64,000 nt of DNA from Anaerolineales bacterium (lineage in GTDB: Bacteria > Chloroflexota > Anaerolineae > Anaerolineales > DRKV01), in contig DAOUFY010000123.1 of the NCBI GenBank assembly GCA_034429745.1, forward strand, positions 895 through 64,894. Direction: 5' to 3'. Positions 4,710 to 28,444 of this stretch are shown one piece after another. The position numbers were made by a program, and so were the translations under genes. The notes under the pieces are model-generated. The model did no database searches. It was not told where the DNA came from and was given only the letters and a program-made list of their open reading frames with translations. Position 1 is the stretch's first letter. Every line of letters begins with the position of its first letter.

Positions 4710-4777
4710 TTTTTTAGCATTAACCTGCTTTACTCATAAATAAAGATACGCACTCATCAAAAAAGGAGTAATTTTTT

Positions 4778-5959: not shown

Positions 5960-6004
5960 ACTTTGAAGGAAAATGAAGAAAAACTGTCTTCGGTACAGTA
6001 ATCT

Positions 6005-6307
6005 TTCCCCTCTCCCCTTGTGGGAGAGGGGTTTGGGGTGAGGGTTTAATAAGCACGATCATCCCTCCCCTCTTGTGAGAGAAGATCCTCGGGACACAGT
6101 CCTAATATCCCACTCCTTTCCCCTTGCAGATGAGCATTCTGCAGTGAGTTTCACCCCCCTCTCCCCTCGTGGGAGAGAGGCCGGGTAGTTGTCTTTTGGG
6201 TATTCACAGCGCCGTATTCCCTCTCCCCTCGTGGGAGAAAAGCCCACGGAATGCAGGCTTAATATCCCCCCTCTCCCCTTTGTGGGAGAGGGGCCGGGGG
6301 TGAGGGC
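6005..6307. repeat. Cluster of five REP-like palindromic hairpin units (consensus CCCCTCTCCCC-N4-GGGAGAGGGG followed by a G-rich tail)
   Basis: Units at about 6007-6045, 6063-6084 (degenerate), 6154-6186, 6218-6245 and 6266-6307. The arms are exact reverse complements in units 1 and 5. Spacing is irregular and the cluster is intergenic. Confidence 0.85.
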
Positions 6308-10934: not shown

Positions 10935-11965
10935 ACTTGGATCTCCCTCCAGCCTTGTTTTGGCACAACGCCCGGCTTTGCGATGCACAAGCTATCCTCT
11001 CACTTATTCATAATGGTGCTCAAGCGCTTCACACCATTTCTACCATGCAACTCAAGGATGTTCAAGCCATCCTTCAAAGCCCGCGTTTTTCCGCAGAAGA
11101 AAGCTGCCTGATATTTATTAAAGAACAGCCTGATCCTATTTTGCTTGGCTTCTGTTGGTTGCTAAGCACCCCCCATCGCCCAAATCAAGCCGAAGTGTGG
11201 ATTCAAATCCACCCCAATCTTGATCAATTTGGCCTCTCCCCTCAAGTACTGGAAGACCCTCTCTTTGCGTGGCTCTTCTCTATCAGTCGCCAGCATTTTT
11301 CTTCTGCTCTATGCAACTACTCCTCTGATCCTACGCAAGGGTGTTGGTTGCTTGGAAGCAGCTGGCAGGATGATCAAACCCGCTGTTCCTCATTTTTGAA
11401 GGCTGGATTTTACCCTCTGCGATTCTCGCTTCACATGCGCCAAGAACTAAGTGATGTCCAGCGTTATTCTCTGCCTGCTTTGCCATCTCCATGCACCCTG
11501 CAGCCTTTCGATTCTAGCCATAGTCAGCATGTTTACCAAGTCTATCAAGAGAGCTTTCAAGATGATTGGCTTTTACAAGTTTCTTCCTTCCCTGCATGGC
11601 AGGAGTTATGGATCAACAAACCCAACTTCCTGCCCAAACTATCATTCATCGCTTTCGCTGAAAACGAACTGATCGGTTTTTTACTGACTGAAGAACACTC
11701 CACCGAAAATATACGCACCGCCCACATAAATATTCTGGGAATAAAACCTTCTTGGCGCAATCGAGGCATTGCCAAATACTTATTGCATTATGCGCTGCAT
11801 GCCTTTCACGCAAACGGCTTCGCTTATGCTACGCTGGACGCAGACCCAGATAGTCCCTATAATGTCGTAGAGTTTTATCAAAAGGCGAATTTTACCCCCA
11901 TAAGAATGAAAGTATATTTTGGTAAGCTTATAGAGAATCAACCAGCATACAACAATGTCAAATAA
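10931..11965 (+). CDS. GNAT-family N-acetyltransferase (two-domain)
   Basis: The C-terminal half has an acetyl-CoA loop, GIKPSWRNRGIAKYLL. The ATGA start overlaps the upstream stop. Confidence 0.6.
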   Translation: MNLDLPPALFWHNARLCDAQAILSLIHNGAQALHTISTMQLKDVQAILQSPRFSAEESCLIFIKEQPDPILLGFCWLLSTPHRPNQAEVWIQIHPNLDQFGLSPQVLEDPLFAWLFSISRQHFSSALCNYSSDPTQGCWLLGSSWQDDQTRCSSFLKAGFYPLRFSLHMRQELSDVQRYSLPALPSPCTLQPFDSSHSQHVYQVYQESFQDDWLLQVSSFPAWQELWINKPNFLPKLSFIAFAENELIGFLLTEEHSTENIRTAHINILGIKPSWRNRGIAKYLLHYALHAFHANGFAYATLDADPDSPYNVVEFYQKANFTPIRMKVYFGKLIENQPAYNNVK

Positions 11966-12954
11966 CTCACCGGCACATCGGCTGCTGCGCCGTAACGGCC
12001 ATCATCCGCAGTAAAAGTTGCAGCAGATGTAACCGCTCCAGCCTTAAAACGTAAGTTATGCATACCTGCGCTAACCCAAAGCGGCATTGTCAAACTTCCT
12101 GATTCTTGGGTAGCACTGGGTATTGTCGTGCAGCAGCGAACGTCTGTCGTATTATCCAACCCTATGCCAACGTGGGCAGTAGCACCAGAAGCAGAGGTAA
12201 CTCGATACATCAGTGAACTATAAATACATGCTCCGCTTGGGGCACCAATCATAAATTCAATCATGGGGTTCACTGTCGCCATGGTCGTACCGCTGCTGAT
12301 AGAATAAGTTGTCGCAGCATTATTATTGCTGTAATTTGGGCAAGAAAACCCGTGTCGCAGCACTTGATTATAATGGTTATACAGATAACGTTGGGTCAAT
12401 GTATCAAAACCCCAAATCCCCGCATACCCTGACCGATAGCCTCCATAAAATGATCCAAGATATCGGTACGTGCTGTCATCTGATTTCACCAATATGCCGT
12501 CTTGATAACCTAAGGGTACGCTGCGCGTTGTATCATTAACCCATTGGACTATAGCTAAAGCTACGGCTCCATTTTGCTCATATGCAAAAACATCATAAGG
12601 ATATCCATAAGGATAGGTTACTGCTCGCAAACTGAAACTGACATTTGAGAAAGTAAAAACATCCCACGTGCTCCCATCATATAAAGAGATCAAGTTGCCG
12701 CAATACGGGACAAAGAACAGGTCCGTAGCATAGCTTATCTCAGATTCTGGAACAGGGTTGGCTGCATTAAAGGACAACCTGCCTTGACATAACGAAGGCA
12801 TTACTGGAATTGAGGGGTTAATCAGTACATTTTTACTTACCGCTCCAATGTAGAGTTTTTCTGTATCAAGGGCGAAACCCATTTCCCCTGGCAGTAAGGT
12901 AGGTAAATCAGCTTGATTGCCGCGTCTAACCTGTATTCGAGTTCTTGTGGACAT
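11938..12954 (-). CDS. Phage tail fibre / receptor-binding protein
   Basis: The N-terminus IQVRRGNQADLPTLLPGEMGFALDTEKLYIG matches the Mtd_N/hyaluronidase-type tail-fibre N-terminal motif. It is the last gene of the module. Confidence 0.6.
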   Translation of the reverse strand: MSTRTRIQVRRGNQADLPTLLPGEMGFALDTEKLYIGAVSKNVLINPSIPVMPSLCQGRLSFNAANPVPESEISYATDLFFVPYCGNLISLYDGSTWDVFTFSNVSFSLRAVTYPYGYPYDVFAYEQNGAVALAIVQWVNDTTRSVPLGYQDGILVKSDDSTYRYLGSFYGGYRSGYAGIWGFDTLTQRYLYNHYNQVLRHGFSCPNYSNNNAATTYSISSGTTMATVNPMIEFMIGAPSGACIYSSLMYRVTSASGATAHVGIGLDNTTDVRCCTTIPSATQESGSLTMPLWVSAGMHNLRFKAGAVTSAATFTADDGRYGAAADVPVSYLTLLYAG

Positions 12955-12965
12955 TCCTCTCCTTT

Positions 12966-14264
12966 CTAGCCGGGTGGCGGTGATAAGGTGCCGCCATCCA
13001 GCGGTTCAGCTAAAAATTCATCTAAAAATCCAGCTCCGTCAAGATGCATATCAAACACCTCATCCATAAAGCAAGCCCCATCCAGGGTGGGATTTGTATA
13101 ATTATCCATATAGACTGCATCGGTCATTGAGGAGAAAAGCCATGGATTCAAGCTTTCCCCTTCTAATATACTTGAAGCTAACGAGATAGCTATCTGAACA
13201 CTCCCTACTTTCTGCGGCAGCACCGACAATGCCACTGCGTGAATCTTGGAAGTGAAAATTTCATCGGTAAATGGGTTATGAACTGAAACAATATCTCCAA
13301 GAAAGTAATGCTTGCCGTAATAGGCTGTTGGCGTTTGCACAACATCAAAGGTTAGTTTTGGGGTCGCAGAATGCTGCCTGAAAAAATTTTCAGCTAAGGT
13401 TGACAAGCCTTCATATGTAGCGGCTGCCGATCCATAAGTAAATGCTTCAATATCTCGCTTAACGCTGTAATCAGCTGAATAGCCTACAGCAACTTGACGA
13501 AGTATAGCTTCACCTCTGCCGGCTGCAATGACTGCCGTTACCTCTTGACTGCTTTTCAATTCATAGTATGGGTTCGCCATATTGCCTCTGGCTAATGCAA
13601 ACAAAACAATATTGCTCCGATCAGTCCCCATTCCGCCGTCATACCACCGAAATTCAAATCTTCCCCCACCGATATATGCCAACTCAAAGTTTCCGTTTCC
13701 AACAATAGCCAAACGCTGAAGCGCAGTCAACAAGTTGTGCAGCGGACAAGAAAAATCTATGCTCGCTCCTGAATCCGCACTCACTTGAACCTGAATGGGA
13801 AATAACGTATGCTGACCATCGCGCAGACGATGTGGTTCTAATCCCGCTGCTGTTGTCGCATTCCAAATTACCAGCTGTTTGGCTATCACTCCTGTTTGAA
13901 CTTGTAAAAACTGCGATCGATTCTGTACCCCACTTAAATAAGCCACAATGCGGGTCGAAAGCAGGAAATTAGGATGAAAAGCTTCTGCTTCAATCTGTGG
14001 CGCTTGATTTGCTGTAATAGAATATTTAATATCCAAGATGATGCCAAGATTTTCCTGATACCAACCAACCTGCTGACGCGGTTCGCACCGATAAAGTTGG
14101 ACAATATGATATACTTTGATATACTGGCAGGCAGGGTGAGAAGCAAGCACTGAAAAACGAATCGTACCTACCCCATTAATAATCTTTTCTGAAGTCAGTG
14201 AAAGAAAATCCGAAAATCGGGCTACAACCTCTCCACTTTGATTCATTATCACAAGATAAAGCAT
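12966..14264 (-). CDS. Phage tail-associated (Tal / Gp37-like) structural protein
   Basis: The N-terminal pattern MLYLVIMNQSGEVVARFSDFLSL...INGVGTIRFSV resembles tail-tip/endopeptidase-tail N-termini. Its position next to the fibre gene supports the call. Confidence 0.4.
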   Translation of the reverse strand: MLYLVIMNQSGEVVARFSDFLSLTSEKIINGVGTIRFSVLASHPACQYIKVYHIVQLYRCEPRQQVGWYQENLGIILDIKYSITANQAPQIEAEAFHPNFLLSTRIVAYLSGVQNRSQFLQVQTGVIAKQLVIWNATTAAGLEPHRLRDGQHTLFPIQVQVSADSGASIDFSCPLHNLLTALQRLAIVGNGNFELAYIGGGRFEFRWYDGGMGTDRSNIVLFALARGNMANPYYELKSSQEVTAVIAAGRGEAILRQVAVGYSADYSVKRDIEAFTYGSAAATYEGLSTLAENFFRQHSATPKLTFDVVQTPTAYYGKHYFLGDIVSVHNPFTDEIFTSKIHAVALSVLPQKVGSVQIAISLASSILEGESLNPWLFSSMTDAVYMDNYTNPTLDGACFMDEVFDMHLDGAGFLDEFLAEPLDGGTLSPPPG

Positions 14265-14283
14265 AGAATCTACATCATCCTAT

Positions 14284-14937
14284 TTAGTAAATGGGAGGAA
14301 TGCTGTTTTTGTTTTGCCACATCACAATCGCTTGGCTTCGATCAAATTGGTTTGTGATCTCTGCAAGCATATGCCGAAACGCAGCAAGCCGAGTCTGAGC
14401 TAACCGTTCGCATAAGTTCTTATCCAATATATCCCCTCGATTGGAAGCCGTGTACAGCAGCAAATTGCCCAACGTTCCCTGCAAAAGCAAATTAAGATGA
14501 GCTTGCAGGACTGTTGTTGTAGCCGCTTCATCCAAGCCTGCAATGGTATGCTGCTTTTCAAGCAGCAAGCGCAGCTCCTTGCCAGCTTGCGGAGGTGTTC
14601 CTGTGTTGGTTTGCAATGTAAGCACAAGCCTTTCTGCCACAACATCAATATTCCAGCGAACGATTTGGTTAGGTACTTGTTCAGCATAACATTTGGTGCT
14701 ATCCCAAGGATAATACACCTTGCGTACCCCCTCTGCAGCCATTGACTGCGGAAGCTCAATCTCGTTGCCCGAATTTACCAACTCAAAAACATACTCCTCA
14801 AGTCGAGGTAAAGATGCGCTGTATTCCTGCAAAGTAAAACGAAGGGCGAGTGCAATGCTCTCATCACTGTAAAGCATCTGCATTGAATCATTGAAATAAC
14901 TGAGGACTTGATTTTTGAAAAACAGAAAATCTGCCAT
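14284..14937 (-). CDS. Hypothetical protein of the phage structural module
   Basis: 217-aa ORF, co-directional and tightly packed with its neighbours. I recognise no motif. Confidence 0.4.
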   Translation of the reverse strand: MADFLFFKNQVLSYFNDSMQMLYSDESIALALRFTLQEYSASLPRLEEYVFELVNSGNEIELPQSMAAEGVRKVYYPWDSTKCYAEQVPNQIVRWNIDVVAERLVLTLQTNTGTPPQAGKELRLLLEKQHTIAGLDEAATTTVLQAHLNLLLQGTLGNLLLYTASNRGDILDKNLCERLAQTRLAAFRHMLAEITNQFDRSQAIVMWQNKNSIPPIY

Positions 14938-14943
14938 AATTTG

Positions 14944-15819
14944 TTATAGTGCTATTCGGGTTGGAGTAAAAGCGATCGCAACCCGAGTCGTTTCCCCGCA
15001 GTTTGCCCCTTCCACCTTAATACTATTGATTCCCCCAAGTGCTTCTGGTGCCGGTAAGAAAGCAAAACTTTCCAAATCCGAATCCGCTGAGAGGGCTGGA
15101 AGTAAGGACTCCGAACCTTTCATAATGGTTTTATAACCCGGCCGCAAATCTATGAATACCGTTTGGTTTTGTGCTATAGTTGTATTGAGATCGAGTTTCA
15201 TACCGCCACTTAAATTCGTAATAATTGGGTGAGTAATAGGACCGCGCAACGAAAACGGATAAGGATAGGCGAGCCATGTGCCGTTATATACAATATCCTT
15301 CGTTGAAGGAATATCATTTTGATAGAAAGTGGTTATCGTTTGGGTTGTATATTGAGTCCATACTGGGTTTGGTGCAACCAATGTAAAGTGTGCAGTCTGT
15401 AAAAATGGTGAAGGAGAATTGATGTCTTTACTTTTAGGTTTTGCACTAAAACTCAATGAAGTACAGAATACCTGCATTCGCCATGCGGTGCCTTCTGGCA
15501 GCCGGCACTCAAGGATGGAGGGAATAAGCGTATGATAAGGGCGCAGAACTTGTATTAAACTGCTGCGCCGCTGATAATACTCTGCTGAAGTTTGCGCCCT
15601 CATCGTCAATTGCACCTTGAGCTGACGCGGCGACAGATGAAACCCAAAATCACTTGCCCCATGCTGCAGTGGCGTAATTTCAAGATGTCGTTCAATCGGC
15701 GGCAGCGCCAACCCTTCTATCTGCTCATAAATAAAATTTTCTATTCCCAAGGATATCGAGAGAGCCAATGACGGATCATAAAGAGTAAAATTATGGAGTT
15801 CCTCTATCAAGTTGGACAT
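14944..15819 (-). CDS. Phage distal-tail (Dit)-like protein
   Basis: The C-terminal pattern IVYNGTWLAYPYPFSLRGPITHPIITNLSGGMKLDLNTTIAQNQTVFIDLRPG...SFAFLPAP...NSIKVEG is typical of phage tail family / distal tail proteins. Confidence 0.45.
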   Translation of the reverse strand: MSNLIEELHNFTLYDPSLALSISLGIENFIYEQIEGLALPPIERHLEITPLQHGASDFGFHLSPRQLKVQLTMRAQTSAEYYQRRSSLIQVLRPYHTLIPSILECRLPEGTAWRMQVFCTSLSFSAKPKSKDINSPSPFLQTAHFTLVAPNPVWTQYTTQTITTFYQNDIPSTKDIVYNGTWLAYPYPFSLRGPITHPIITNLSGGMKLDLNTTIAQNQTVFIDLRPGYKTIMKGSESLLPALSADSDLESFAFLPAPEALGGINSIKVEGANCGETTRVAIAFTPTRIAL

Positions 15820-16546
15820 AAGCTACTCCTTGAAAAACCGCAGCAATATAGAGAACTTCGCCAAAGCAAAGCCATATATCTTCCCATCCGCCTGATTGTA
15901 CGATAATCATCTTTTCATATCCCAATATCGCCGATTCATATAAGACACCAACCACCGGCGCTAGAACCGAAGGTGCCGAGCGGATGTTAAGCAGAGTAAC
16001 CTTTACTCTTGCTGTTCCTTTTTCATCTAATGTACGGCTGCTGAGCGTTGGGCTTTGTCCCTCTCCCGTAGGAGAGGGACAGACCAGAGAAGAAAAGGAG
16101 GTTTGGGAGAAGGATGAAGGTAGGGCAGATTCTTGCAGGTAAGGCAGTGGGTCAATGTACCCTTTATAAGCATCATTTTTGGCATAAGTGAGCTTACGCA
16201 AACCAAAATGTAAATGCGGACCTGTAGAAAACCCACTGTTTCCCATAAAACCAATTAAGTCGCCTGCTTTTAGCGTAGTTTTGTCTTTAGCAATCAGCCG
16301 CTGCAAATGACAATAATATGACGTAAGGCTCTCTTTGTGGGTGATCGTACAATACAAGCCATAACCCTGCGGATCAAAGGGGTGAATCTGCAGCAGTCCT
16401 GCATCCGCAGCATATATCGGATCGCCCAATGCTCCCGCAAAATCAATTCCGTTATGACCTGGAAAACCAAATTGTGCATACATTGTTGGGTTTTCACCAA
16501 ATTGTTGGGTAATTACCCTTGAAGAGGTAGGAAACTGCATTGCCAA
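15791..16546 (-). CDS. M23 (LytM) peptidoglycan endopeptidase with an SH3-like C-terminal domain
   Basis: M23 motifs GHNGIDFAG and GNSGFSTGPHLHFG. The linker contains an in-frame REP-type hairpin (see findings). Confidence 0.8.
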   Translation of the reverse strand: MAMQFPTSSRVITQQFGENPTMYAQFGFPGHNGIDFAGALGDPIYAADAGLLQIHPFDPQGYGLYCTITHKESLTSYYCHLQRLIAKDKTTLKAGDLIGFMGNSGFSTGPHLHFGLRKLTYAKNDAYKGYIDPLPYLQESALPSSFSQTSFSSLVCPSPTGEGQSPTLSSRTLDEKGTARVKVTLLNIRSAPSVLAPVVGVLYESAILGYEKMIIVQSGGWEDIWLCFGEVLYIAAVFQGVAYVQLDRGTP

Positions 16547-16553
16547 GCCTTAT

Positions 16554-18626
16554 TTATGGTACATTGTGTTTATACAAACCGCGATAATCCATTGCCCCTA
16601 CGGCAAAGAAAAAGCGTACCTTTATTGGCATCGTATCATTTGTGAACATTAACCCAGAGACTGGGTTAGCTACTGAAAAAATTTCTGGTGCGCGTCCATA
16701 ACGATAGCCAATACCAATAGTGGGATACAGCAGTGGATCGGCGACTGCAGCCCAATTCTTAGGATTCGTCCACAAATCAACCACAATTACCCGTGAGCGC
16801 GCCGAGCGCATACGCTCCGTCAAGGTATCGCCTTCAGCCCAAACGTTATCCAGATAATTAGCAGAACCAGACTGAGCTGCACCCAAAATCTGCAATGCTG
16901 TATTTTCCAGCTCATTAGGCACAAGCAAATATTTTGGCGCAGTAAGCATTCCCAATGCCGCTGCCGAAGCACCCGAAGCTGCAAACTCCGTTTGATCGCG
17001 CATTGCCTGCCGCGTGGCTGCCCAAGCGTTGGAAGAAAGCGGACTAGAACCTAAATTCCCATGATGAACGCTGTCAAACAAGGTATAGCCATCCGAGAGG
17101 ATTGGACCTACCGCCGAGCCACTTGTGGCATCTGTAAAAATTTCCGCAACAGCTTTGGATAACGTTAAGTAAGCCCCTTGAGCCAAGGCAGCCGGAGCAG
17201 TACGCAGTTTGCGGGTATCATCTTTATCAATAGCTTCAATGGTAATGCCCAAATAACCACCTTTCTTTATAAAAGAGGCTGTCTCTCGCTTATCATCCCA
17301 AGCTAATTCAGGGTAAGCATTGCCTTCATCAATGGTAGGCAATGCTCCTATGCCCGCTAAAGTGATCCATTTGATATCTTGCAATGTTTGGTAGTCTTCC
17401 TCGCGGACAATTGGCTCAAACCATTTGGGGAATTTCGCAAATTCATTGACCACTCGCTTGTTCAACGCATCCGCTACCAAACTCGACATAGTCGAAGAAT
17501 TTACATTAGCAAACATCACTCGTTCAGGATGGAACACACCACTTAATTCATAATCTCCCGAGATAAGATTATAAAATTCTCGAATGCCATTCAGCGGTTT
17601 TATGCCATTCGGTGGACGAACACCATCAAGCAAAGCCTCAAACGCTAAGGTTAATTGATCAAAACCAGTCATTCCACCTTGAATTTGGGAAGACCTCGGG
17701 GCAACATTGCCTATGTGAATTACCTGTTCCTGAACTAAAGAGGCTAAATATTCTTTTTCAGCTTTAATGGCTTGAGCAACCTCTGCCGGCGAGGAGTAAA
17801 GCTGACATTGCTGCAGCAGCTTATCTTTCGCCACCTGAGGTAAATCCGATGCCAAAATCAAAGACTGATTCGCAATAAAACTATACGAGCGAAGAGCTTG
17901 CTGCATGTGAGCTAATCGTTGCTCCATTTCCGCTGCAGAAGAAGCAGTCAAAGAAGCTTCAATATCCTGCCCTAATTTGGCTTCATCCTCACCAACCATA
18001 TCTCTTGATGATTCTATTGTCATATCATTCTCCATATCATTTGTAGCAAACTGAAAATTACTAGGGAGCTTTTTCTTTTCGTTCCCTATCATTCTGTCCG
18101 AGCTCAGCAGTTGTAAAAATCTTCCATCTGCCGCCGGCTGAAAAACAATATCAATTGATTCAATATGCTTAATTGCCGTTATAACTGTAGCTTCCGACGA
18201 TACTTCTAGCGAGGGGTAAAAGACAAGCGACAAACCAATATCCGGCGGCTTTGGGTCAGCAAGGATTTGCAGAAGCAAATCAGCTATCGCCATCCCGTCT
18301 TCTGTATCATAAAGTTGAATAGTGCCATAAACAGCTTGATCCTGCTCGTCCCAGGTTGAATGGATTGTCTTGCCAACCAAGTTGCGAAGCGAGGGTGGCT
18401 CACAAGGTTCGGCGTGGTCAATAAAAACAGCTTTATCATTGAAGGCGCCTTCCTCAACCGCTAACCGTAATGTCTCCGCTGCTATGCATATTGGTGCCGG
18501 CGAATTGTCAGCATAACGAATAAACCCAGCCCGAACAAAGCGGCACTTAAAAGCTATAGGTTCAAACTTCTTGTCTTCAAGAGCATGCAGCAATTTGCCA
18601 GCTGAAGATAAACGAAGAACTTTCAT
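16554..18626 (-). CDS. Putative prohead protease/scaffold fused to a major capsid protein
   Basis: 690 aa: an N-terminal ~170-aa globular part, an acidic/coiled-coil middle (EMEQRLAHMQQAL...) and a ~330-aa C-terminal capsid-like part. It lies directly downstream of the portal gene. Confidence 0.5.
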   Translation of the reverse strand: MKVLRLSSAGKLLHALEDKKFEPIAFKCRFVRAGFIRYADNSPAPICIAAETLRLAVEEGAFNDKAVFIDHAEPCEPPSLRNLVGKTIHSTWDEQDQAVYGTIQLYDTEDGMAIADLLLQILADPKPPDIGLSLVFYPSLEVSSEATVITAIKHIESIDIVFQPAADGRFLQLLSSDRMIGNEKKKLPSNFQFATNDMENDMTIESSRDMVGEDEAKLGQDIEASLTASSAAEMEQRLAHMQQALRSYSFIANQSLILASDLPQVAKDKLLQQCQLYSSPAEVAQAIKAEKEYLASLVQEQVIHIGNVAPRSSQIQGGMTGFDQLTLAFEALLDGVRPPNGIKPLNGIREFYNLISGDYELSGVFHPERVMFANVNSSTMSSLVADALNKRVVNEFAKFPKWFEPIVREEDYQTLQDIKWITLAGIGALPTIDEGNAYPELAWDDKRETASFIKKGGYLGITIEAIDKDDTRKLRTAPAALAQGAYLTLSKAVAEIFTDATSGSAVGPILSDGYTLFDSVHHGNLGSSPLSSNAWAATRQAMRDQTEFAASGASAAALGMLTAPKYLLVPNELENTALQILGAAQSGSANYLDNVWAEGDTLTERMRSARSRVIVVDLWTNPKNWAAVADPLLYPTIGIGYRYGRAPEIFSVANPVSGLMFTNDTMPIKVRFFFAVGAMDYRGLYKHNVP

Positions 18627-18653
18627 CTGCCTTCTTCCCTAAAATTTACCTAT

Positions 18654-18995
18654 TCATTCCGCAGCAGTAAAAGACTTCCCTATGAAAGGTGCAGATCTAA
18701 AAATCTTATGCGAAAGTTTTGAAACCCCCAACTGAGTTGTATAAGCAAAGACAATCAACAGCAATTCCGCGAGCTTCTCGGCTTGAATATCCAATGCTGC
18801 AATATCGGTTTGTGGTGAAAACAAATTCAATCCAATCAGCCCTGCCAAAGCTAAAAAATTGAGCAGTAAAGAATAAATCTGAGCCTCTCCATCTTTGACA
18901 ATAGACAACGTTTTAAGAATATTGATCAAGGCAGCAATGAGTGCCGACACCCCAGAAAGGGCGGCAAATTGAGTGAAAATGTCAGTTATTTCCAT
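18654..18995 (-). CDS. Small three-TM membrane protein, holin-like
   Basis: MEITDIFTQFAALSGVSALIAALINIL... with about three hydrophobic helices. Start set at internal ATG 18995, because the ORF-track start overlaps the portal gene. Confidence 0.35.
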   Translation of the reverse strand: MEITDIFTQFAALSGVSALIAALINILKTLSIVKDGEAQIYSLLLNFLALAGLIGLNLFSPQTDIAALDIQAEKLAELLLIVFAYTTQLGVSKLSHKIFRSAPFIGKSFTAAE

Positions 18996-19011
18996 CAGTT
19001 GTTTTTTCTCC

Positions 19012-20331
19012 TTATTTAGAATTATTATTGGGGTAAATTTCTTGTAGAATTTTCTCAAGCAGCTCTTCACTTAAGGGATTCCCGCCGGCATTCAGGATCA
19101 ACGAAGTAAACAATTTAGTCAATGTTGGGCTTGAGTTCGGAAGCTGCGATCCAAGCACTTGGTAAGTTTGGGCTAACATATGGGCAGCCTTTGCCAGTGA
19201 TTCATTATCCGTACGCGAAATATCCGGAAGCAGTGCAGTAAACAGCTTGTTGTAGTTCCGTTCTGTTAATTGCGGCACCTTTCCCAATTGATAAGCGCGT
19301 TGATAGGCTTGATAAGTAATATCCTGCAGGATATAAAGGAAATATTGCTGACGGCGCAGCAGGTGCCGTTCCGTTGGAGCTTGCATCGCTGTTGCGGTAG
19401 CGAGGTTTGCGTCTGCAGCTTCCCCGCGCCAATGAGGAGGAAAGCCGGCACCGGCATCAATCATTCCGCGCACCGCTTTTAAGTCTGCTTGTGCATCATT
19501 TGCATTGAGATTAGGCGTTACTGCTTGCCACTGCTCGGCATCATCCTTGATGATGATCGCCCCTGCTTCAGGAGGATGGGCATATTGCTGCTGTTTTTCG
19601 CGAATCTTATTCGTTGGCACAGTAACCAACCATAAAAAGGAACGCACAGCCCAATGCAAGCGCACTCGATCTTCCAACATGCGCGAGTAGCGCATGAGCC
19701 ACGGCAGCATTGAAGTTAAATCCGATTCCCCCAGCAATGCTCCCAACGGACGATTGATCGCATAATGCAGCATTACCGCTCCTTCTTGAGGTGATTCCGG
19801 GTGTTGCGGTGAGAGCCAGCGAGTTGCCTCTCCTAGCAAGTTCACTTCTTCATAAGCTAATTCTGTCTCATAATCGTTCGCTGCCGACTCAATCCGCCGA
19901 ATGCGGTCTTTTGTTACAAAACGAATGTAGGACATGCCATCCTGAGGATTGCGAAAGAGAAGCACAAACAAATCCCCCGCTCGTGTCAATTCATCACACA
20001 TTGCCTCTAAACGCAAATGTAGTTGATTCTTGGGATGATGCCAGAACTCATTGATAAAACGGCGCATAGAGCGGTAAGGTGATGAGAGTGAAATCCCATC
20101 TCCTGCAACGTAATCCGATGTGATCGCAACAATCCGCCAGGCAAGCGGATTTTTCCGCCATGCGGTTAGCGCATCATTATAAAGTTCCGCGACTTTTGCT
20201 GAATCGTAATCATGCGGGCTGACGGTCGTCGAAATCCAAACTTGCGGATATGCATCATCCACTTGAGGAGGTTTGACTGCCGTCGCGCGTTGAGGATAAA
20301 TTATTTTCTTGATTGTGTTAAGGATAGACAT
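19012..20331 (-). CDS. Phage portal protein
   Basis: 439 aa and first gene of the module. It contains NPLAWRIVAITSDYVAGDGISL, which resembles conserved portal N-terminal regions. The position upstream of the capsid gene supports the call. Confidence 0.55.
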   Translation of the reverse strand: MSILNTIKKIIYPQRATAVKPPQVDDAYPQVWISTTVSPHDYDSAKVAELYNDALTAWRKNPLAWRIVAITSDYVAGDGISLSSPYRSMRRFINEFWHHPKNQLHLRLEAMCDELTRAGDLFVLLFRNPQDGMSYIRFVTKDRIRRIESAANDYETELAYEEVNLLGEATRWLSPQHPESPQEGAVMLHYAINRPLGALLGESDLTSMLPWLMRYSRMLEDRVRLHWAVRSFLWLVTVPTNKIREKQQQYAHPPEAGAIIIKDDAEQWQAVTPNLNANDAQADLKAVRGMIDAGAGFPPHWRGEAADANLATATAMQAPTERHLLRRQQYFLYILQDITYQAYQRAYQLGKVPQLTERNYNKLFTALLPDISRTDNESLAKAAHMLAQTYQVLGSQLPNSSPTLTKLFTSLILNAGGNPLSEELLEKILQEIYPNNNSK

Positions 20332-20400: not shown

Positions 20401-20429
20401 TTTACACCCTTAAGGATTGATGGTATAAT
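20401..20429 (+). promoter_or_regulatory. Promoter TTTACA-17 nt-TATAAT with an extended -10 TG, driving the Zn-ribbon/CA-tail/rSAM operon
   Basis: TTTACAcccttaaggattgaTGgTATAAT was read directly. It sits back-to-back with the phage-module promoter. Confidence 0.6.
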
Positions 20430-20491
20430 GAAAACATCAGAGGTGTTTGGCAGAACATTCGGTTGCTTTGTTATCAATAGAGGAGGGTGTT

Positions 20492-20857
20492 ATGTCTGCT
20501 ATTCGAATCATTGCTTATATCGCCGCGGCAATCTTGATATTTTTCGGCGTTCTTTTCATTTGGGCAACCTTTAGCCCTCAAGGTAACTTGGGCTGGCTGC
20601 TGATTGGTGTAATTTCCGTGCTAATAGGCTTCGGGTTGATTTGGTTCGCTCAGCGCCGCAAGGCAGCCGAGGAGCAAGAAAAGAATATTACCTATAAAGT
20701 TGATCTTTCTGGTGATATTAAGCTAGAAAGCCTCAAATGCAAAGCTTGCGGTGGTCCACTAACACCTGACAACGTTAAAATGGTGGCCGGTGCTCCCGTA
20801 GTAACCTGCCCCTACTGCGGTGTATCTTATCAACTTACCGAAGAGCCTAAATGGTAA
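20492..20857 (+). CDS. Small membrane protein with a C-terminal zinc ribbon
   Basis: Two TM helices, then CKACGG...CPYCG (CxxC...CxxC). Start at ATG 20492 behind AGAGGAGGG. The ORF-track start at 20447 is a TTG. Confidence 0.6.
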   Translation: MSAIRIIAYIAAAILIFFGVLFIWATFSPQGNLGWLLIGVISVLIGFGLIWFAQRRKAAEEQEKNITYKVDLSGDIKLESLKCKACGGPLTPDNVKMVAGAPVVTCPYCGVSYQLTEEPKW

Positions 20858-20868
20858 GGAGGCTCTTC

Positions 20869-22551
20869 ATGAATAAAAGATTATTCACAATTATTTTTAT
20901 CACCTTACTGCTGCTGTCTTTCCCTGCTGCAGCTCTGGCACAACATTATTCTTTTTCCATAGACGAGATGATCGTCCATACCTACTGGCACGAGGACGGC
21001 ACGTTATCCTTAGACTACACCATTACTTTCACTAATCATCCTAATGGTGATCCAATTGACGTTGTTGACATTGGATTGCCTAACAAAAACTATGATCTCA
21101 GTACTGCCCGTGCCGAAATTAATGGTGTGCCTTTATCGCGTATTGAAGATTCTCCCTACGTAACCGGCATAGCTGTTGAGCTTGGTAACCAAGCAATTCA
21201 ACCTGGAAAAAGTGGCACACTTCATTTCTCCATCTCTGGAATTCGCGATGTATTATACGTAGATGATCAAGACCCCCAATATGCCTCAGCGGTCTTTAAA
21301 ACAACTTGGTTTGACAGTAGTTTTGTCTCCGGAACAGCAAAAATAACTGTTACATATCACCTCCCCCCCTCAATTCAGCCTGAAGAACCGCGCTGGCATA
21401 GTGCCCCATCAGGTTTTTCGGCTGAACCCACAGCCAACATTGACAATCTAGGCAGAATTACCTATACTTGGGAAAACCCAGCTGCTAACCCTTCAGAAGG
21501 TTATCTCTTTGGGGCATCATTCCCTGCTCGCAATATACCGCCTACCGCCATTCAAAAAACTGCAATCCCAAATGAGACGTTCGACCAACTAGTTAACTGC
21601 CTGTGCAATCCCTTTGGATTTTGTATCATCGTAATCTTCTTCGTCGCACTATCCATTGTTCCTCAAGTCATCATCGCCCGTCGCCGCTCAATGAAATACC
21701 TGCCCCCTTCAATCTCCATTGAAGGGCATGGCATCAAACGCGGCTTAACTGCAGTTGAAGCCGCAGTACTGATGGAACAGCCAATGGAAAAAATCCTTAC
21801 CATGATTTTATTCTCTGTCCTTAAAAAGAACGCTGCTGAAATCACCTCGCGTGAACCGCTTGAGATTAAGGTAGCCGATCCCCTTCCCGAAGACCTCTAC
21901 CCCTATGAAAAAGAATTTCTAAAAATTTATAGTGAAATAAAAGATAAAAGGCAACAGCAAATAGCCCTGCGGGATTTAATGGTCAATCTTGTTAAAAGTT
22001 TAGCCGAAAAAATGAAAGGCTTCAGCCGCAAAGAGACGGTGGATTATTACAAATCCATTTTAGAAAAAGCGTGGCAGCAAGTTCAAAGTGCTCAAACCCC
22101 TGAAGTGAAAAGCGAATTGTATAACCAGAATTTAGATTGGACAATATTAGATCCTAACTTTGAACGACGAACGAGTGAGGTATTTCGCACGGAGCCCATT
22201 TTTGTTCCGAACTGGTGGTGGCGTTATGATCCCACCTTTGCTCGTGCTAGCACAATGCACCGAGCCAGCCCAACCAGTACTGCTGCCCCCTCCGTCCCGC
22301 AAGGCAGCATCTCGCTGCCTACCTTGCCCGGCTCCACTTTCGCTGCCAATGTAGTTGGCGGAATGCAAAACATTGCCGGCAATTTAGTTGGGAACATCAC
22401 CAGCTTTACCAGTTCCATCACCAATGCCACCAACCCTCAGCCTAAAACCAGTTCTTCATCTTGGAAGAAAAGCAGTGGTGGCGGTTGTGCTTGCGCTTGT
22501 GCCTGTGCGTGCGCCGGATGTGCTTGTGCCTGTGCCGGCGGTGGTCGCTGA
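20869..22551 (+). CDS. Secreted/membrane protein with DUF2207-like architecture and a C-terminal (Cys-Ala)n tail
   Basis: Signal peptide MNKRLFTIIFITLLLLSFPAAALA, an N-terminal beta-rich ectodomain (YSFSIDEMIVHTYWHEDGTLSLDYTITF), a TM helix, and a tail reading SSGGGCACACACACAGCACACAGGGR. Start at 20869 behind TAAGGAGG. Confidence 0.65.
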   Translation: MNKRLFTIIFITLLLLSFPAAALAQHYSFSIDEMIVHTYWHEDGTLSLDYTITFTNHPNGDPIDVVDIGLPNKNYDLSTARAEINGVPLSRIEDSPYVTGIAVELGNQAIQPGKSGTLHFSISGIRDVLYVDDQDPQYASAVFKTTWFDSSFVSGTAKITVTYHLPPSIQPEEPRWHSAPSGFSAEPTANIDNLGRITYTWENPAANPSEGYLFGASFPARNIPPTAIQKTAIPNETFDQLVNCLCNPFGFCIIVIFFVALSIVPQVIIARRRSMKYLPPSISIEGHGIKRGLTAVEAAVLMEQPMEKILTMILFSVLKKNAAEITSREPLEIKVADPLPEDLYPYEKEFLKIYSEIKDKRQQQIALRDLMVNLVKSLAEKMKGFSRKETVDYYKSILEKAWQQVQSAQTPEVKSELYNQNLDWTILDPNFERRTSEVFRTEPIFVPNWWWRYDPTFARASTMHRASPTSTAAPSVPQGSISLPTLPGSTFAANVVGGMQNIAGNLVGNITSFTSSITNATNPQPKTSSSSWKKSSGGGCACACACACAGCACACAGGGR

Positions 22552-22584
22552 TCAAGAGCAGAGCGATCTGCATAATGCCATTCT

Positions 22585-23931
22585 ATGATAAACCAATGGT
22601 TCTCCAAGATCCTTAAACCTCCACCGCCAGCATCTCCACCCAAAAGCACCTTACCAAAACCAGGGCTTTATGCCTATGCGCGTAACGATTCCTGCGAAAA
22701 AATGACTCTTCACTTACGAGTTGAGGAAGATGGCAGAGGTACATTGGTGCTCAATGCCAATCGCATCTTTCACCTCAACCCAACCGCTGCCAGCATGACA
22801 TTTTTTATTCTCGAAGATACTCCACCAAACGAAGCTTTAAATAAAATTCTTAAAACATACCACGGCAATCGCAAACAAATAGAACAGGATTTTATAAACT
22901 TTCGCGAAACAATCCAAGCTCTCATTGAACACCAAGCAGCTTGCCCCATCTGCGATCTTAACATTAATGTCAACCCTCCATTCAGCACAGAACCTTCGGC
23001 TCCCTATCGCATGGATTTAGCACTCACATATAGCTGCAATAATCACTGCGTTCACTGCTACAACGAGACTGACCGTCATTTACAAAGCTTATCGCTCGAT
23101 CAATGGAAAAAAGTGATTGACCGCCTCTGGGAATTGCGTATTCCTCACCTCGTTTTTACCGGCGGTGAACCAACACTATCACCATATCTTCCTCAGTTGA
23201 TCGCTTATGCTCATGCTAAAGGATTCATTTGTGGCTTAAACACAAATGGACGGCGGCTAAGTCAACCAACTTATCTAGATTCTCTCATTGCTGCTGGGTT
23301 AGATCATGTCCAAATCACCCTAGAATCACACGATCCATCAATACATGACAATATTGTTCAAAGCTGCGGCGCTTGGCAAGAAACTACTGCCGGCCTTCGC
23401 CTTGCCCTGCAATCCCCCCTTTATGTGATGACCAACACAACTCTCCTTCGTCATAATACCCCCTACCTGCAAGAGACATTGCAATTTTTAGCCGAGCTTG
23501 GAGTGCCAACCATCGGGTTAAATGCACTTATTTTCGCCGGGCGAGGCAAAGAAATTCAAAACCCCTTGGCTGAAACCGAACTCGAAACTTTACTGACCAT
23601 TGCTAAGGAAATCACCCAAGATCATCAGCAGCGTTTGATCTGGTACACCCCCACACAGTACTGCCATTTTGACCCTGTAGAACAGGATTTAGGTATCAAA
23701 GGTTGTACAGCTGCACTTTACAATATGTGCATTGAACCGAATGGCAACGTTTTGCCATGTCAGTCATACTTTCAACCGGTCGGAAATATTCTAGTAAATC
23801 AATGGGAAGAAATATGGCAGCATGATCTCTGCCAATGGCTGCGTCAACGCCGCTTTGCTCCTCAGAAATGCCGCGGTTGCCCCTTGCTCAAAGAATGCGG
23901 TGCCGGTTGCCCCCTTGCTTTAGATCGCTAA
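22585..23931 (+). CDS. Radical SAM / SPASM-domain maturase with an N-terminal PqqD-like (RRE-like) extension
   Basis: Radical-SAM motif CNNHCVHC (Cx3Cx2C). The C-terminal CRGCPLLKECGAGC matches the SPASM pattern Cx2Cx5Cx3C exactly, preceded by CIEPNGNVLPC. About 130 aa precede the core. Confidence 0.85.
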   Translation: MINQWFSKILKPPPPASPPKSTLPKPGLYAYARNDSCEKMTLHLRVEEDGRGTLVLNANRIFHLNPTAASMTFFILEDTPPNEALNKILKTYHGNRKQIEQDFINFRETIQALIEHQAACPICDLNINVNPPFSTEPSAPYRMDLALTYSCNNHCVHCYNETDRHLQSLSLDQWKKVIDRLWELRIPHLVFTGGEPTLSPYLPQLIAYAHAKGFICGLNTNGRRLSQPTYLDSLIAAGLDHVQITLESHDPSIHDNIVQSCGAWQETTAGLRLALQSPLYVMTNTTLLRHNTPYLQETLQFLAELGVPTIGLNALIFAGRGKEIQNPLAETELETLLTIAKEITQDHQQRLIWYTPTQYCHFDPVEQDLGIKGCTAALYNMCIEPNGNVLPCQSYFQPVGNILVNQWEEIWQHDLCQWLRQRRFAPQKCRGCPLLKECGAGCPLALDR

Positions 23932-24811: not shown

Positions 24812-25219
24812 TTAGTGTTGATGATTTACCAGCATATCGAATGTGGTATTTTTCAATCGTTGCACTATCTCTCCCTGAGTTTTACACCAAATTTCATGCA
24901 ATGGACAATTGCTTCCAAAATAGCATGTCTTTGGATCGGCAACACACTCATTTAGCCAAATCGGTCCATCAATGGCTTCTACTACTGAAAGTACAGTAAT
25001 CTCGCTTGGTGGTATGGCTAATGATACCCCACCTCGTGCACCGCGCGAGGTTTCCAACATGCCCGCGACTGCCAATTGAGAGATAATTTTAGCTAAAAAT
25101 GAGATAGGAATCTTCTGCTCAACGGCAATCTTATTGGTGGAGGCACGCTGATTCGTACCTAAGCGTGCAAGATACAGCACCGTTCGGAGTGCATAATCTG
25201 CTTGTCTTGTAATCTGCAT
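24812..25219 (-). CDS. Rrf2-family transcriptional regulator (probable Fe-S type)
   Basis: N-terminal wHTH MQITRQADYALRTVLYLA. Three Cys spaced C-x6-C-x5-C (CVADPKTCYFGSNC). Confidence 0.85.
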   Translation of the reverse strand: MQITRQADYALRTVLYLARLGTNQRASTNKIAVEQKIPISFLAKIISQLAVAGMLETSRGARGGVSLAIPPSEITVLSVVEAIDGPIWLNECVADPKTCYFGSNCPLHEIWCKTQGEIVQRLKNTTFDMLVNHQH

Positions 25220-25437: not shown

Positions 25438-26754
25438 ATGGAACAAATTTGTGTCGTCGGTGTTGGCTACGTTGGCTTAGTTACTGCTGCCTGTTTCGCC
25501 GATCTCGGCAATCGCGTTGTCGCCTTAGATGTTGACGAGAAAAAGATCCAAGGTTTGAACAATGGCATTATGCCAATTTATGAGCCGGGATTAGAAGAAC
25601 TAGTAGAACGCAATCTGCGTGCTGGTCGCCTGAGCTTTACAACGTCCTACCAAGAAGGCCTGAAGGAAGCTGAATTTGCTTTCATCGCAGTTGGCACTCC
25701 TCCAGGAGTTGAAGGTGAAGCAGACCTTACTTTCGTGGCTGCAGCAGCTCAATCTATCGCCAAAAATATGCACGCTCCGCTCATCATCATCAATAAATCA
25801 ACTGTCCCCGTTGGTACAGGAGACTGGGTAGCCGAAATTGTTAAAACCCATCAACCTAAGCCAATAGATTTTGCCGTTGTCTCGTGTCCAGAATTTTTAC
25901 GCGAAGGATCTGCCATCTTAGACTTTATGAATCCGCATCGCATTGTTCTGGGCAGTCTCAACAAAGAAGCCGCAGAAAAAGTTGCCCGTCTGCACCTCCC
26001 TTTGCGTGCCCCCATTATCGTAACAGATCTGCGTACTGCTGAAATGATCAAATATGCCTCCAACGCTTTCCTTGCCACTAAAATTTCTTTCATTAATGAA
26101 ATCGCAAACATCTGCGAAGCCTTGGGCGCGGATGTAAAAGAGGTCGCAGTTGGAATGGGATACGATACCCGCATTGGCAAACAATTCCTTGATGCTGGTT
26201 TAGGTTATGGCGGCTCTTGCTTTCCAAAAGATGTTTTGGCTCTAGCTCATATGGCAGAAGAAAAAGGACATCACCCTCAGCTTCTGCATGCTGTAATGAA
26301 AATCAACCAAGACCGCCGAAAGATGGCTGTAGATCGCGTACGTGAGATGCTCGGTTCTCTACAGGATAAAGTCATCGGTTTGCTCGGTCTGGCTTTTAAA
26401 CCCAATACAGACGACATGCGCGATGCTCCTGCACTTGATATTGCTAAAGCCCTCATCAAAGAAGGTGCACGCGTAAAAGCTTATGATCCAGTCGCTATGG
26501 AAGTCGCTGCTTCTCTACTCCCCGAGGTGCAGCTTTGCCCTGATTCTTATGCAGTGGCTGAATCCGCAGACCTCCTCATGATTATTACCGATTGGAATGA
26601 ATTCAAATTCCTCGACCTCGAACGCATTAAAACGTTCATGCGTTCCCCCAATATCTTCGATGGCAGAAACATCTACGATCCCGAAAAAGTACGCAGTCTC
26701 GGGTTTAACTACTATGCCATCGGCAGAGGATATAATGGAACAAATTCCCTCTAA
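25438..26754 (+). CDS. ugd: UDP-glucose 6-dehydrogenase
   Basis: Rossmann motif VGVGYVGL and catalytic GGSCFPKD. Confidence 0.9.
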
Positions 26755-27682
26755 TCCCCCTTCTCTCCCTCCCCTTTGCAATTACGAAAACTCAGATTAT
26801 CAAACCACTTTTTGGGAGCAAGGGGGAAGGGAATATGAAGACCAAGCTGAAGCTGTTTCCTTAAAGCATCTATTGCCCCCCAAAGGGCAGTGGCTGCTAG
26901 AAATTGGAGCTGGTGCAGGCCGCAATACCCCGCGCTATCATGCTTTTCAGCATATTGTACTGCTGGATTATTCCCTCACTCAACTCCAACAAGCCCGAGA
27001 GCGGCTCTCCGTTGCCAATTCCTCATCTCTGTCTTCTGATGGTTTTGCGAGGTTTATCTACGTTGCTGCAAACGCTTACCGTCTTCCCTTTGCTCCGCAC
27101 AGTTTTGACTGCGTAACAACAATCCGCGTTATTCATCATCTAGCCAATGTTCCGCTAGCCATCCAAGAAATCCACCGAGTGATGCTGCCCAACGGCGTGC
27201 TTGTGATGGAATTTGCCAATAAGCACAACCTCAAAGCTATCTTGAGATATTGGTTAGGAAAGCAAACATGGAGTCCCTTCTCACTAGAGCCAATTGAATT
27301 TGTAAAATTGAATTTTGACTTTCACCCTAAATGGATGGAGCAAGTGCTTATCCAAAACGGTTTTACCATCCAAGAGAAGCGCAATGTATCTTCATTGCGC
27401 TTAGGCATATTAAAAAGAATACTCCCTTTGAGCAGTTTAGTCCATCTCGATACGCTGCTTCAACCAAGCGGCAAGTGGTTTCAGCTTGCGCCAAGCATAT
27501 TTTTCCGCGCCTCCGCTGTTCACCACCCTGAAACCCTAAGTCAACCCCCTTCTTCTTTGGTATTTGCCTGTCCGCAATGCCAAGCCTACCCGCTTGCTTC
27601 CACTCCCACAGCCTATATTTGCCCCTCATGCAGACGAGAATGGAGCATCCATAATGGCATTATTGATTTTAGAATCGGTTAA
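26735..27682 (+). CDS. Class I SAM-dependent methyltransferase with a C-terminal Trm112-like zinc ribbon
   Basis: SAM motif [11 protein letters not shown] and C-terminal CPQC...CPSC. Start set at ATG 26735, because the ORF-track start lies inside ugd. Confidence 0.7.
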
Positions 27683-27700: not shown

Positions 27701-28444
27701 TTATAGTTTTTCCATAACCCAAAAATGAGAAAGTCCAAACACGCGCAAAGGCGTATTTTCCAACCCTTGCAAAACCATGCGTAAAGCGCGTCCAATCCAG
27801 CCTAAACGTTGAATAATATTATCATAAGCCCCAAACACATACGTCCGTTGCACGACCTTCAGCGGCAATTCATCAAATAATTGGCTTAAATCCTTTTGTG
27901 TATAAACTCTTACATGCGGCGCAAGACGATTGCGCCAGCGAATGGGAAGATAATTAACTAAGGGGATGTTTCCAAACACATACTTCCCCCGCCAAAAAAT
28001 GCCATGTGTCTCAAAAGGATAGCCGCGATTGGGACAAAAAAGCACTAATCGCCCACCGGGCTTAAGCACTCTTGCCATCTCACGTATAGCCTTCCGATCA
28101 TCTTCCACATGTTCAATCACTTCATGACTTAATAACGCATCAAATACTCCCTCCCCAAAAGGCAGGTTTTCACCCGCCCCACAAAGGATATGAGCATTCT
28201 TTTTCCTTGCTTCAAGTGCACGTTCAACATCGCGTTCCAGACCTACTACAACACCTCCTAGATTGCTAAGCTGCGTTACATAAGCCCCTACTCCGCAGCC
28301 ATCTTCAAGCACCTTCCCCTTTACCCTATCCCCCATGGCTAAACGGATCATGCTAAACCGTCTTTCCTGCCCGGCCCGCCACACATAGGATGGCTCTCCT
28401 AATTGTGCGGCTTTATCTAAGGCGTTGCGGTGCTCTTTTTGCAT
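27701..28444 (-). CDS. Class I SAM-dependent methyltransferase
   Basis: SAM motif VLEDGCGVGAY and acidic loop VVGLERD. Confidence 0.75.
   Translation of the reverse strand: MQKEHRNALDKAAQLGEPSYVWRAGQERRFSMIRLAMGDRVKGKVLEDGCGVGAYVTQLSNLGGVVVGLERDVERALEARKKNAHILCGAGENLPFGEGVFDALLSHEVIEHVEDDRKAIREMARVLKPGGRLVLFCPNRGYPFETHGIFWRGKYVFGNIPLVNYLPIRWRNRLAPHVRVYTQKDLSQLFDELPLKVVQRTYVFGAYDNIIQRLGWIGRALRMVLQGLENTPLRVFGLSHFWVMEKL

Follow-up and report, generated by a model that had tools for sequence, protein, structure and literature searches.

We analysed a 64,000-nt stretch of forward-strand DNA from an Anaerolineales bacterium (assembly GCA_034429745.1, contig DAOUFY010000123.1, positions 895-64,894), in which a radical S-adenosylmethionine (SAM) enzyme is encoded next to a large membrane protein that ends in a cysteine repeat. 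The whole stretch is called the window, and its own numbering is used below. Three tightly packed genes on the same strand, designated g1, g2 and g3, occupy positions 20492-23931; g1 and g2 overlap or abut, and a gap of 34 nt separates the g2 stop codon from the g3 start. Upstream of g1 lies a sigma-70-like promoter, TTTACA-17-(TG)TATAAT (20401-20429, plus strand), recognised by consensus match only (11 of 12 positions, with an extended -10 TG). The original prediction for this locus (20401-23931) had described the same promoter and genes and had proposed that the radical SAM enzyme modifies the tail of the membrane protein; all of the gene features that it described were found in place.

The second gene, g2 (20869-22551, plus strand, as are all operon features below), encodes a 560-aa membrane protein. 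Its reading frame is open from 20851, and the ATG at 20869 is the likely start because of a GGAGG ribosome-binding site and a database protein (P0001, 560 aa) that is 100% identical to the window product. A signal peptide (20869-20940) was read from the sequence and overlaps a helix at residues 2-17 of the AlphaFold2 (AF2) model; an AxA motif suggests cleavage between MNKRLFTIIFITLLLLSFPAAALA and the following Q. The model, with a mean predicted local distance difference test (pLDDT) score of 81 for the whole protein, contains an extracytoplasmic beta-sandwich (residues 28-220, 20950-21528; pLDDT >90), a transmembrane helix followed by RRRS (residues 248-276, 21610-21696) and a cytoplasmic alpha/beta plus helical domain (residues 290-455, 21736-22233; pLDDT ~90) with many invariant residues, for example GHGIKRGLTAVEAA. 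In Foldseek searches the ectodomain matched the M1 aminopeptidase N-terminal domain (E ~1e-6) as well as ribophorin I/Ost1. A further conserved segment (residues 485-525, 22321-22443), modelled as helices over 488-521, holds the invariant residues P487, G488, F491, A492, F513, T518, T521, P523 and P525 and precedes a linker that leads to the C-terminus. The protein ends at 22551 in SGGGCACACACACAGCACACAGGGR, where the eight cysteines of the predicted Cys-Ala-rich end can be read directly. Within it, the tail CACACACACAGCACACAGGGR (22486-22548) is the proposed modified core; it is disordered in the AF2 model (pLDDT <50).

The 560-aa length, the signal peptide and the presence of a transmembrane helix agree with what had been predicted for g2, while two other expectations did not hold. 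First, the C-terminus had been thought probably surface-exposed. Because the signal peptide is followed by one transmembrane helix and then RRRS, the positive-inside rule and the AF2 model instead predict that the C-terminal 290 residues, tail included, are cytoplasmic, which would bring the tail and the oxygen-sensitive radical SAM enzyme together in one compartment. Second, g2 had been likened to DUF2207. The window protein had no Pfam match to DUF2207 (PF09972/PF20990) at E <= 1, and only one of 59 homologues matched weakly (DUF2207, E = 0.0086; DUF2207_C, E = 0.065). With the window protein and 58/59 homologues unmatched by the Pfam models, membership was rejected, though g2 may be a distant relative; searches of window g2 against Pfam and NCBIfam returned no family.

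The third gene, g3 (22585-23931), encodes a 448-aa enzyme that appears to combine an N-terminal RiPP recognition element (RRE; RiPP, ribosomally synthesised and post-translationally modified peptide), a radical SAM domain and a SPASM region. Its start is supported by a PGLYxY motif upstream of Met40 that is conserved among homologues. As predicted, the protein scored above the Pfam cut-offs for Radical_SAM (PF04055, 85.5 bits against 29.5, 6e-24) and SPASM (PF13186, 39.4 bits against 21.5, 7e-10, residues 374-433). The radical SAM motif C151-x3-C155-x2-C158 (CNNHCVHC, 23035-23058) is invariant in the alignment and was found in 79/80 orthologues. The SPASM cysteines C374, C392 and C429-x2-C432-x5-C438-x3-C442 (23704-23910) are likewise invariant; g3 carries CRGCPLLKECGAGC, and all 80 orthologues contain CxxCx5Cx3C. 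From these motifs the SPASM region is predicted to bind two auxiliary Fe-S clusters. The AF2 model of g3 (predicted template modelling score 0.79) shows N-terminal strands and three helices, a radical SAM barrel and the SPASM region. The putative RRE/PqqD-like domain (residues ~25-115, 22657-22929) was assigned from this fold together with a sub-threshold PqqD match: strands lie within residues 27-64 and helices at 66-76, 81-91 and 96-114, in a winged-helix layout. The top Foldseek matches of the model were the RRE-containing peptide maturases SkfB, SuiB and CteB (398-455 columns), and by sequence profile the closest solved structures were SkfB (79 bits) and PqqE (71 bits).

The first gene, g1 (20492-20857), encodes a 121-aa protein with two hydrophobic helices, RRK and then a cytoplasmic zinc ribbon (KCKACGG...CPYCG), ending in YQLTEEPKW; the sequence thus bears out the predicted two-helix membrane protein with a CxxC...CxxC ribbon. 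Pfam and NCBIfam searches with g1 gave weak zinc-ribbon matches, none of them over its cut-off. Its similarity to the LysW carrier scored 19 bits, where 75 are required, and was dismissed as generic to zinc ribbons.

Linkage and conservation of the cysteine tail

A one-genome-per-species scan with the g3 alignment confirmed at least 588 stretches with a g3 relative, of 600 matched. The best 80 of these at least 588 loci were chosen by g3 homology alone; all are from Anaerolineae-type Chloroflexota, including the isolate Thermanaerothrix solaris. At every one of the 80 loci an open reading frame (ORF) with a Cys-Ala tail lies on the strand of g3 and terminates just before it, and seven loci carry tandem g2 paralogues (two copies). 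In a reverse test, metagenome contigs were scanned with a degenerate DNA pattern of the tail only. This recovered 122 tails, among which all ORFs long enough to test were g2-like. Either g3 or its paralogue g4 (described below) lay downstream of 109 of the 113 tails that had enough downstream sequence; nine tails had no downstream room, and four had some room and no radical SAM gene. The tail was not found on any other protein scaffold. Synteny of maturase and tail, a point on which the original prediction had asked to be checked, was therefore found in both directions.

Few sequences of any kind are as strongly conserved as this tail. The best 120 g2 homologues, at 41-100% identity and in two size classes (~555 and ~770 aa), all have the identical last 19 residues, CACACACAGCACACAGGGR. 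Moreover, the last 17 residues, CACACAGCACACAGGGR, are invariant in 87 tails from the 80 loci, even though these tails use both Cys codons, all four Ala codons, all four Gly codons and at least five Arg codons. The linker just before the tail is a variable run of Gly, Ser and Arg, so the general layout is a flexible Gly/Ser linker followed by CxCxCxC-xx-CxCxC-x-GGGR. At the DNA level the window repeat is imperfect: at period 6 the matches amount to 68%. Because synonymous codons vary while 17 residues are fixed, and because the repeat is imperfect, selection acts on the peptide; a DNA microsatellite as the source of the tail was rejected on the same grounds.

Taken together, these results lead us to propose that the g2 tail is probably the substrate of g3. 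We also lean, though only slightly, towards the broader view that g1, g2 and g3 constitute one functional module in which g3 acts on the g2 tail. The data suggest a system that chemically alters an entire membrane protein, not a small secreted peptide. Radical SAM modification of a large-protein tail, as originally predicted, thus draws support from synteny and from the predicted RRE fold, while the enzyme-substrate relationship and the chemistry are still inferred.

The association extends to divergent members of the family. A profile search of 1.84 billion representatives returned 1112 family members at E <= 1e-3, 448 of them at E <= 1e-30. Variant tails include CACAGCACACACAGGGR, CACACACASCACACAGGGR, forms with -CVS- or -CDS-, a single-block (CA)5GGGR and three-block tails such as CVCACVSCACVCACVSCACACAGGGAG. 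These divergent tails follow a common rule, in which CxCxC(xC) blocks are spaced exactly two residues apart and the cysteines are invariant; the alternating residue is mostly Ala and sometimes Val, Asp or His. Two loci with three-block tails, L206 (5669-9024) and L208 (8571-11933), retain the g1-g2-g3 order, with g3 at 42-43% and g2 at 29% identity. Proteins at least 90% identical to the g2 of L208 are labelled Aigarchaeota archaeon, and Nre genes adjoin the L206 triad; for these reasons the triad seems to be present in archaea too. Its occurrence on archaeal-looking contigs points to transfer between domains or to great age. In the high-GC locus L207 the gene order is changed (g3, a pseudo-radical SAM gene, g2). 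The link between g3 and the tail therefore survives a change of gene order and extends to archaeal-type contigs.

Several observations weigh against g3 acting on the tail. Co-occurrence by itself identifies no substrate. An intact-tail g2 without a radical SAM gene in the available sequence was found at three loci (L121, L187 and L209), and at two more (L113 and L162) where the downstream sequence is short; the tail may thus not need the enzyme, or the gene for the enzyme may lie elsewhere. The window g3 scored 17.3 bits against the PqqD model PF05402, under the cut-off of 23.4, although a precomputed match to this model exists for 19 of 120 g3 homologues. The predicted N-terminal PqqD/RRE domain is upheld by the modelled strands and three helices, and by the g4 counterpart passing the PqqD cut-off, but not by the Pfam score of the window protein. 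In addition, the C-terminus of g1 (TEEPKW, or SEEPLW in an archaeal-type locus) is conserved as strongly as the g2 tail and is a rival substrate. g1 precedes g2 in 77/80 loci, the other three ending at contig edges, and its zinc ribbon and C-terminal TEEPKW are nearly invariant in the alignment of homologues. It falls into 2436 database clusters, and because its best 120 homologues are 65-100% identical to the window protein, g1 is the most conserved of the three. It could be a second substrate or a partner.

Repeats of CxC are classic metal-thiolate ligands, a further point against modification, and this raises the alternative that the tail is a putative intrinsic metallothionein-like metal or Fe-S site, its CxC thiolates aligned along one side of a strand or hairpin, with the radical SAM enzyme acting otherwise in the same complex. 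We regard this as unlikely. It would account for the resemblance of CxCxCxC-xx-CxCxC, with its small spacers, to metal-thiolate motifs, for divergent tails that strictly keep only their Cys positions, for the persistence of the tail where no radical SAM gene is adjacent, and for a partner, g1, that joins a zinc ribbon to an invariant C-terminus. An Rrf2 gene near the window operon and suf genes near about 20 of the 80 loci would also fit, but such neighbours occur in a minority of loci. However, the RRE implies a peptide or protein segment as the binding partner of g3, g3 adjoins the 3' end of g2 in nearly all loci, even after a change of gene order, and 17 invariant residues, Ala, Gly and the terminal Arg among them, are seldom required for a metal site. 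Were the tail such a site, g3 might modify the g1 C-terminus, load or build the cluster on the tail, or use a small-molecule substrate.

At L121 (3530-4162) and L187 (1991-2617), loci of a divergent lineage, a gene beside the tail end of g2 encodes a ~210-aa protein with CxxC motifs and a hydrophobic segment at its N-terminus. This protein may play the role of g1 there.

A proposed modification and its chemistry

Modification of the g2 tail would differ from the usual RiPP arrangement, in which a short precursor has a leader and a core and proteolysis frees the mature peptide, since the one candidate substrate belongs to a 560-aa membrane protein. No short precursor gene was found in the g1-g2-g3 operon, as had been predicted, and the overlapping or abutting g1 and g2 and the 34-nt g2-g3 gap leave no space for one. 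A 48-aa ORF (20428-20574) was dismissed because it begins within the -10 box and overlaps g1. Larger g2-g3 gaps at other loci were also considered as the site of a conserved small gene, an idea that was rejected since they hold mobile-element insertions or a second g2.

A conventional RiPP would still be conceivable if the tail or C-terminal region were cleaved off, leaving some 540 residues as a giant leader. The position of the putative core at the extreme C-terminus would suit this, and protein-sized leaders are known from some RiPP classes, one such paper being cited in PMC12710340. Yet the cassette holds no conserved protease or exporter, the whole of g2, including ectodomain and transmembrane helix, is conserved at ~50% identity, and the system is widespread in Anaerolineae in the manner of a housekeeping trait. 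A cleaved peptide product is accordingly highly improbable.

By eye, six metagenomic loci (L092, L099, L102, L145, L160 and L183) appear to have genes for ~180-aa RAYT/IS200-like transposases with REP-like repeats between g2 and g3, and L008 appears to have an IS-type transposase inserted at the same junction (3700-4890). The g2-g3 junction seems to tolerate insertions.

Returning to modification of the tail by g3, the following sequence of events can be envisaged. Cytoplasmic g3 would dock through its RRE onto residues ~485-525 of g2, whose conservation makes them a candidate recognition ('leader-like') sequence and putative RRE-binding site, and would then modify the Cys-x tail by radical chemistry. 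The likeliest reaction would be the formation of intramolecular sactionine- or ranthionine-type thioethers, joining Cys sulfur to a neighbouring backbone or side-chain carbon. Such cross-links would make the loose tail a stiff knot, poor in thiols or able to organise metal. As the cassette encodes no protease or exporter, the modified tail would remain attached to the membrane protein. In most Anaerolineae, g4 and a further gene, g5, might assist or add further modifications; the window has the three-gene core only.

Thioether formation is ranked first because of the architecture of g3 and its nearest characterised relatives, and we put it forward tentatively. Family membership speaks against reading the chemistry so directly: no sactipeptide, ranthipeptide, SCIFF or ACGX model was passed, and the reaction of g3 cannot be read from it. 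In NCBIfam none of the maturase equivalogs reached its cut-off. The scores were 68.3 bits for AlbA (cut-off 850), 61.2 for StsB (625), 57.4 for the GDL-motif family (592) and 56.9 for ACGX (400); the best was NirJ2, at 124.5 against 500, and PqqE, AhbD and MftC were among the other leading models.

The same scores bear on the alternative that the tail is the target of g3 but undergoes some reaction different from cross-linking, such as conversion of Cys to formylglycine or thioaldehyde (anSME-like), epimerisation, thio-oxazole formation or a C-C bond, with possible methylation by g5. SPASM enzymes in general catalyse all of these reactions, the leading NCBIfam models (NirJ2, PqqE, AhbD and MftC) are not thioether synthases, and a methyltransferase is conserved in 63/80 cassettes. 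Against this, all g3 scores are far under the cut-offs, the nearest solved structure in sequence is a sactisynthase, as is the best fold match, and characterised RRE-SPASM enzymes with Cys-rich substrates mostly make thioethers. We therefore judge such chemistry rather improbable.

The larger cassette is seen in most Anaerolineae loci, where g4, a ~385-aa paralogue 30-35% identical to g3, lies directly downstream of it. None of 71 g4 proteins has CxxxCxxC or the SPASM cysteines, and the median is two Cys per protein; g4 does retain the GGE region and an N-terminal domain that exceeds the PqqD cut-off (27.9 and 28.7 bits against 23.4). From its sequence, g4 is classed as a cluster-less pseudo-radical SAM protein with an RRE. 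Next comes g5, a class I SAM methyltransferase present in 63/80 loci; at L018, for example, the two genes occupy 4255-5421 and 5422-6195. Neither g2, g4 nor g5 passed an equivalog cut-off in NCBIfam. Parallels to the DVU_1556 methyltransferase (g5, 60 bits against 155), the DVU_1557 redox protein (g1, E = 0.05) and TrsS (g4, 34 bits) were considered and set aside as too weak.

The window has no g4 homologue. In its lineage, which includes a relative with a 68%-identical g3, convergent LysM and Rrf2 genes come after g1-g2-g3. Two class I methyltransferase genes lie some 3 kb beyond the operon (26597-27682, plus strand; 27701-28444, minus strand); the second is probably not g5, since it matches g5 over the SAM-binding region only (34%, 102 aa).

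A more far-reaching and doubtful idea is that modification of the tail belongs to a housekeeping radical SAM pathway, in effect a captured RiPP system. It would build a tethered cofactor or a cross-linked thiol/thioether knot at the cytoplasmic end of the conserved membrane protein in Anaerolineae and some archaea, with the g1 C-terminus and the pseudo-radical SAM protein as partners.

Genomic surroundings of the operon

Back to back with the operon promoter is a 12/12 consensus promoter on the minus strand (TTGACA-18-TATAAT, 20399-20370), oriented away from the operon and toward phage-like genes. These form a divergent eight-gene cluster directly upstream of the operon (11938-20331, minus strand), with products that include a Mtd_N tail-fibre-like protein, Sipho_Gp37, Sipho_tail, an M23 peptidase, a 690-aa Phage_capsid_4 protein and a portal-sized 439-aa protein. 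Housekeeping genes lie to the left of the cluster, in which no terminase or integrase was seen. It may be a prophage remnant or an element resembling a gene transfer agent.

The Rrf2-family regulator is encoded two genes downstream of g3 (24812-25219, minus strand). Where suf genes lie near related loci (about 20 of 80), they form a convergent cluster with SufU-, SufS-, SufD-like and Rieske-type products, named by sequence reading. A link of these neighbours to Fe-S metabolism is possible, or they may reflect merely inherited gene order. Further along the window is a 2857-aa ORF (49631-58204, plus strand).

Relation to known systems

Work on RRE-dependent radical SAM maturases has dealt almost exclusively with enzymes that produce small secreted natural products. 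Neither g1 nor g2 falls under any Pfam or NCBIfam model and g3 belongs to no equivalog; a literature search that included the literal tail motif returned no description of the system. Chloroflexi and Anaerolineae are not mentioned in the RiPP bioinformatics papers examined (including PMC12710340). The scale of the system is considerable, with at least 588 confirmed stretches in species genomes, thousands of protein clusters and a reach into archaeal-labelled metagenome-assembled genomes. If the tail is the substrate, it would represent a new class of protein post-translational modification and give a function to three large families that are now without annotation. RiPP enzymology would gain a compact, invariant substrate of 17-19 residues together with a pseudo-enzyme partner, and precursor searches limited to short ORFs would be seen to miss whole systems in genome mining.

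The closest parallels are the sactipeptide and SCIFF-type maturases SkfB, AlbA and CteB, which share with g3 the combination of RRE, radical SAM and SPASM/twitch domains and a Cys-rich substrate encoded immediately upstream. Conservation across a class, rather than sporadic occurrence, also recalls SCIFF of Clostridia. Here, however, the place of a 40-60-aa peptide would be taken by the tail of a 560-aa integral membrane protein, g3 passes no maturase model, transporter and protease are absent, and a pseudo-radical SAM partner is usual. The ACGX- and CXXX-repeat families described by Haft (TIGR04340, TIGR04341, TIGR04114 and TIGR04115) similarly place short repeats of Cys and small residues beside a radical SAM/SPASM gene. 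In g2, by contrast, the unit is C-x, it forms part of a large protein and it is invariant where theirs varies in copy number, and g3 scores only 56.9 bits with rSAM_ACGX, against the 400 required.

Two further SPASM enzymes, QhpD and anSME, act on residues of proteins that keep their function as proteins: QhpD makes Cys-Asp/Glu thioethers in QhpC, and anSME converts Cys or Ser to formylglycine in sulfatases. Their targets are soluble or exported enzymes that gain a catalytic residue or a cross-linked subunit, unlike the repeat tail of a membrane protein. Although anSME is among the fold and sequence matches of g3, it lacks an RRE and the similarity is ~32 bits. Metallothionein CxC motifs also alternate Cys with small residues, but the 19-residue tail keeps its non-Cys positions invariant as well, is tethered to a membrane protein and has a dedicated radical SAM enzyme alongside.

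The layout of g2 (signal peptide, extracytoplasmic beta-rich domain, transmembrane segment, cytoplasmic region and Gly-rich C-terminus) is reminiscent of DUF2207 proteins. It differs in having one transmembrane helix after the signal peptide and in escaping the DUF2207 Pfam models, and to our knowledge neither a Cys-repeat tail nor a radical SAM partner is a feature of DUF2207 proteins. For g4 the nearest counterpart is the haloarchaeal Pseudo-SAM/SPASM family TIGR04347, its second-best NCBIfam match (50 bits), with which it shares the loss of cluster cysteines; g4 is nevertheless far under the cut-off of 525, lacks the SPASM cysteines, retains an RRE and does not occur in the window. While RRE-dependent radical SAM/SPASM maturation is itself known, these comparisons suggest that its proposed use on an integral membrane protein, with a pseudo-enzyme as partner, is new.

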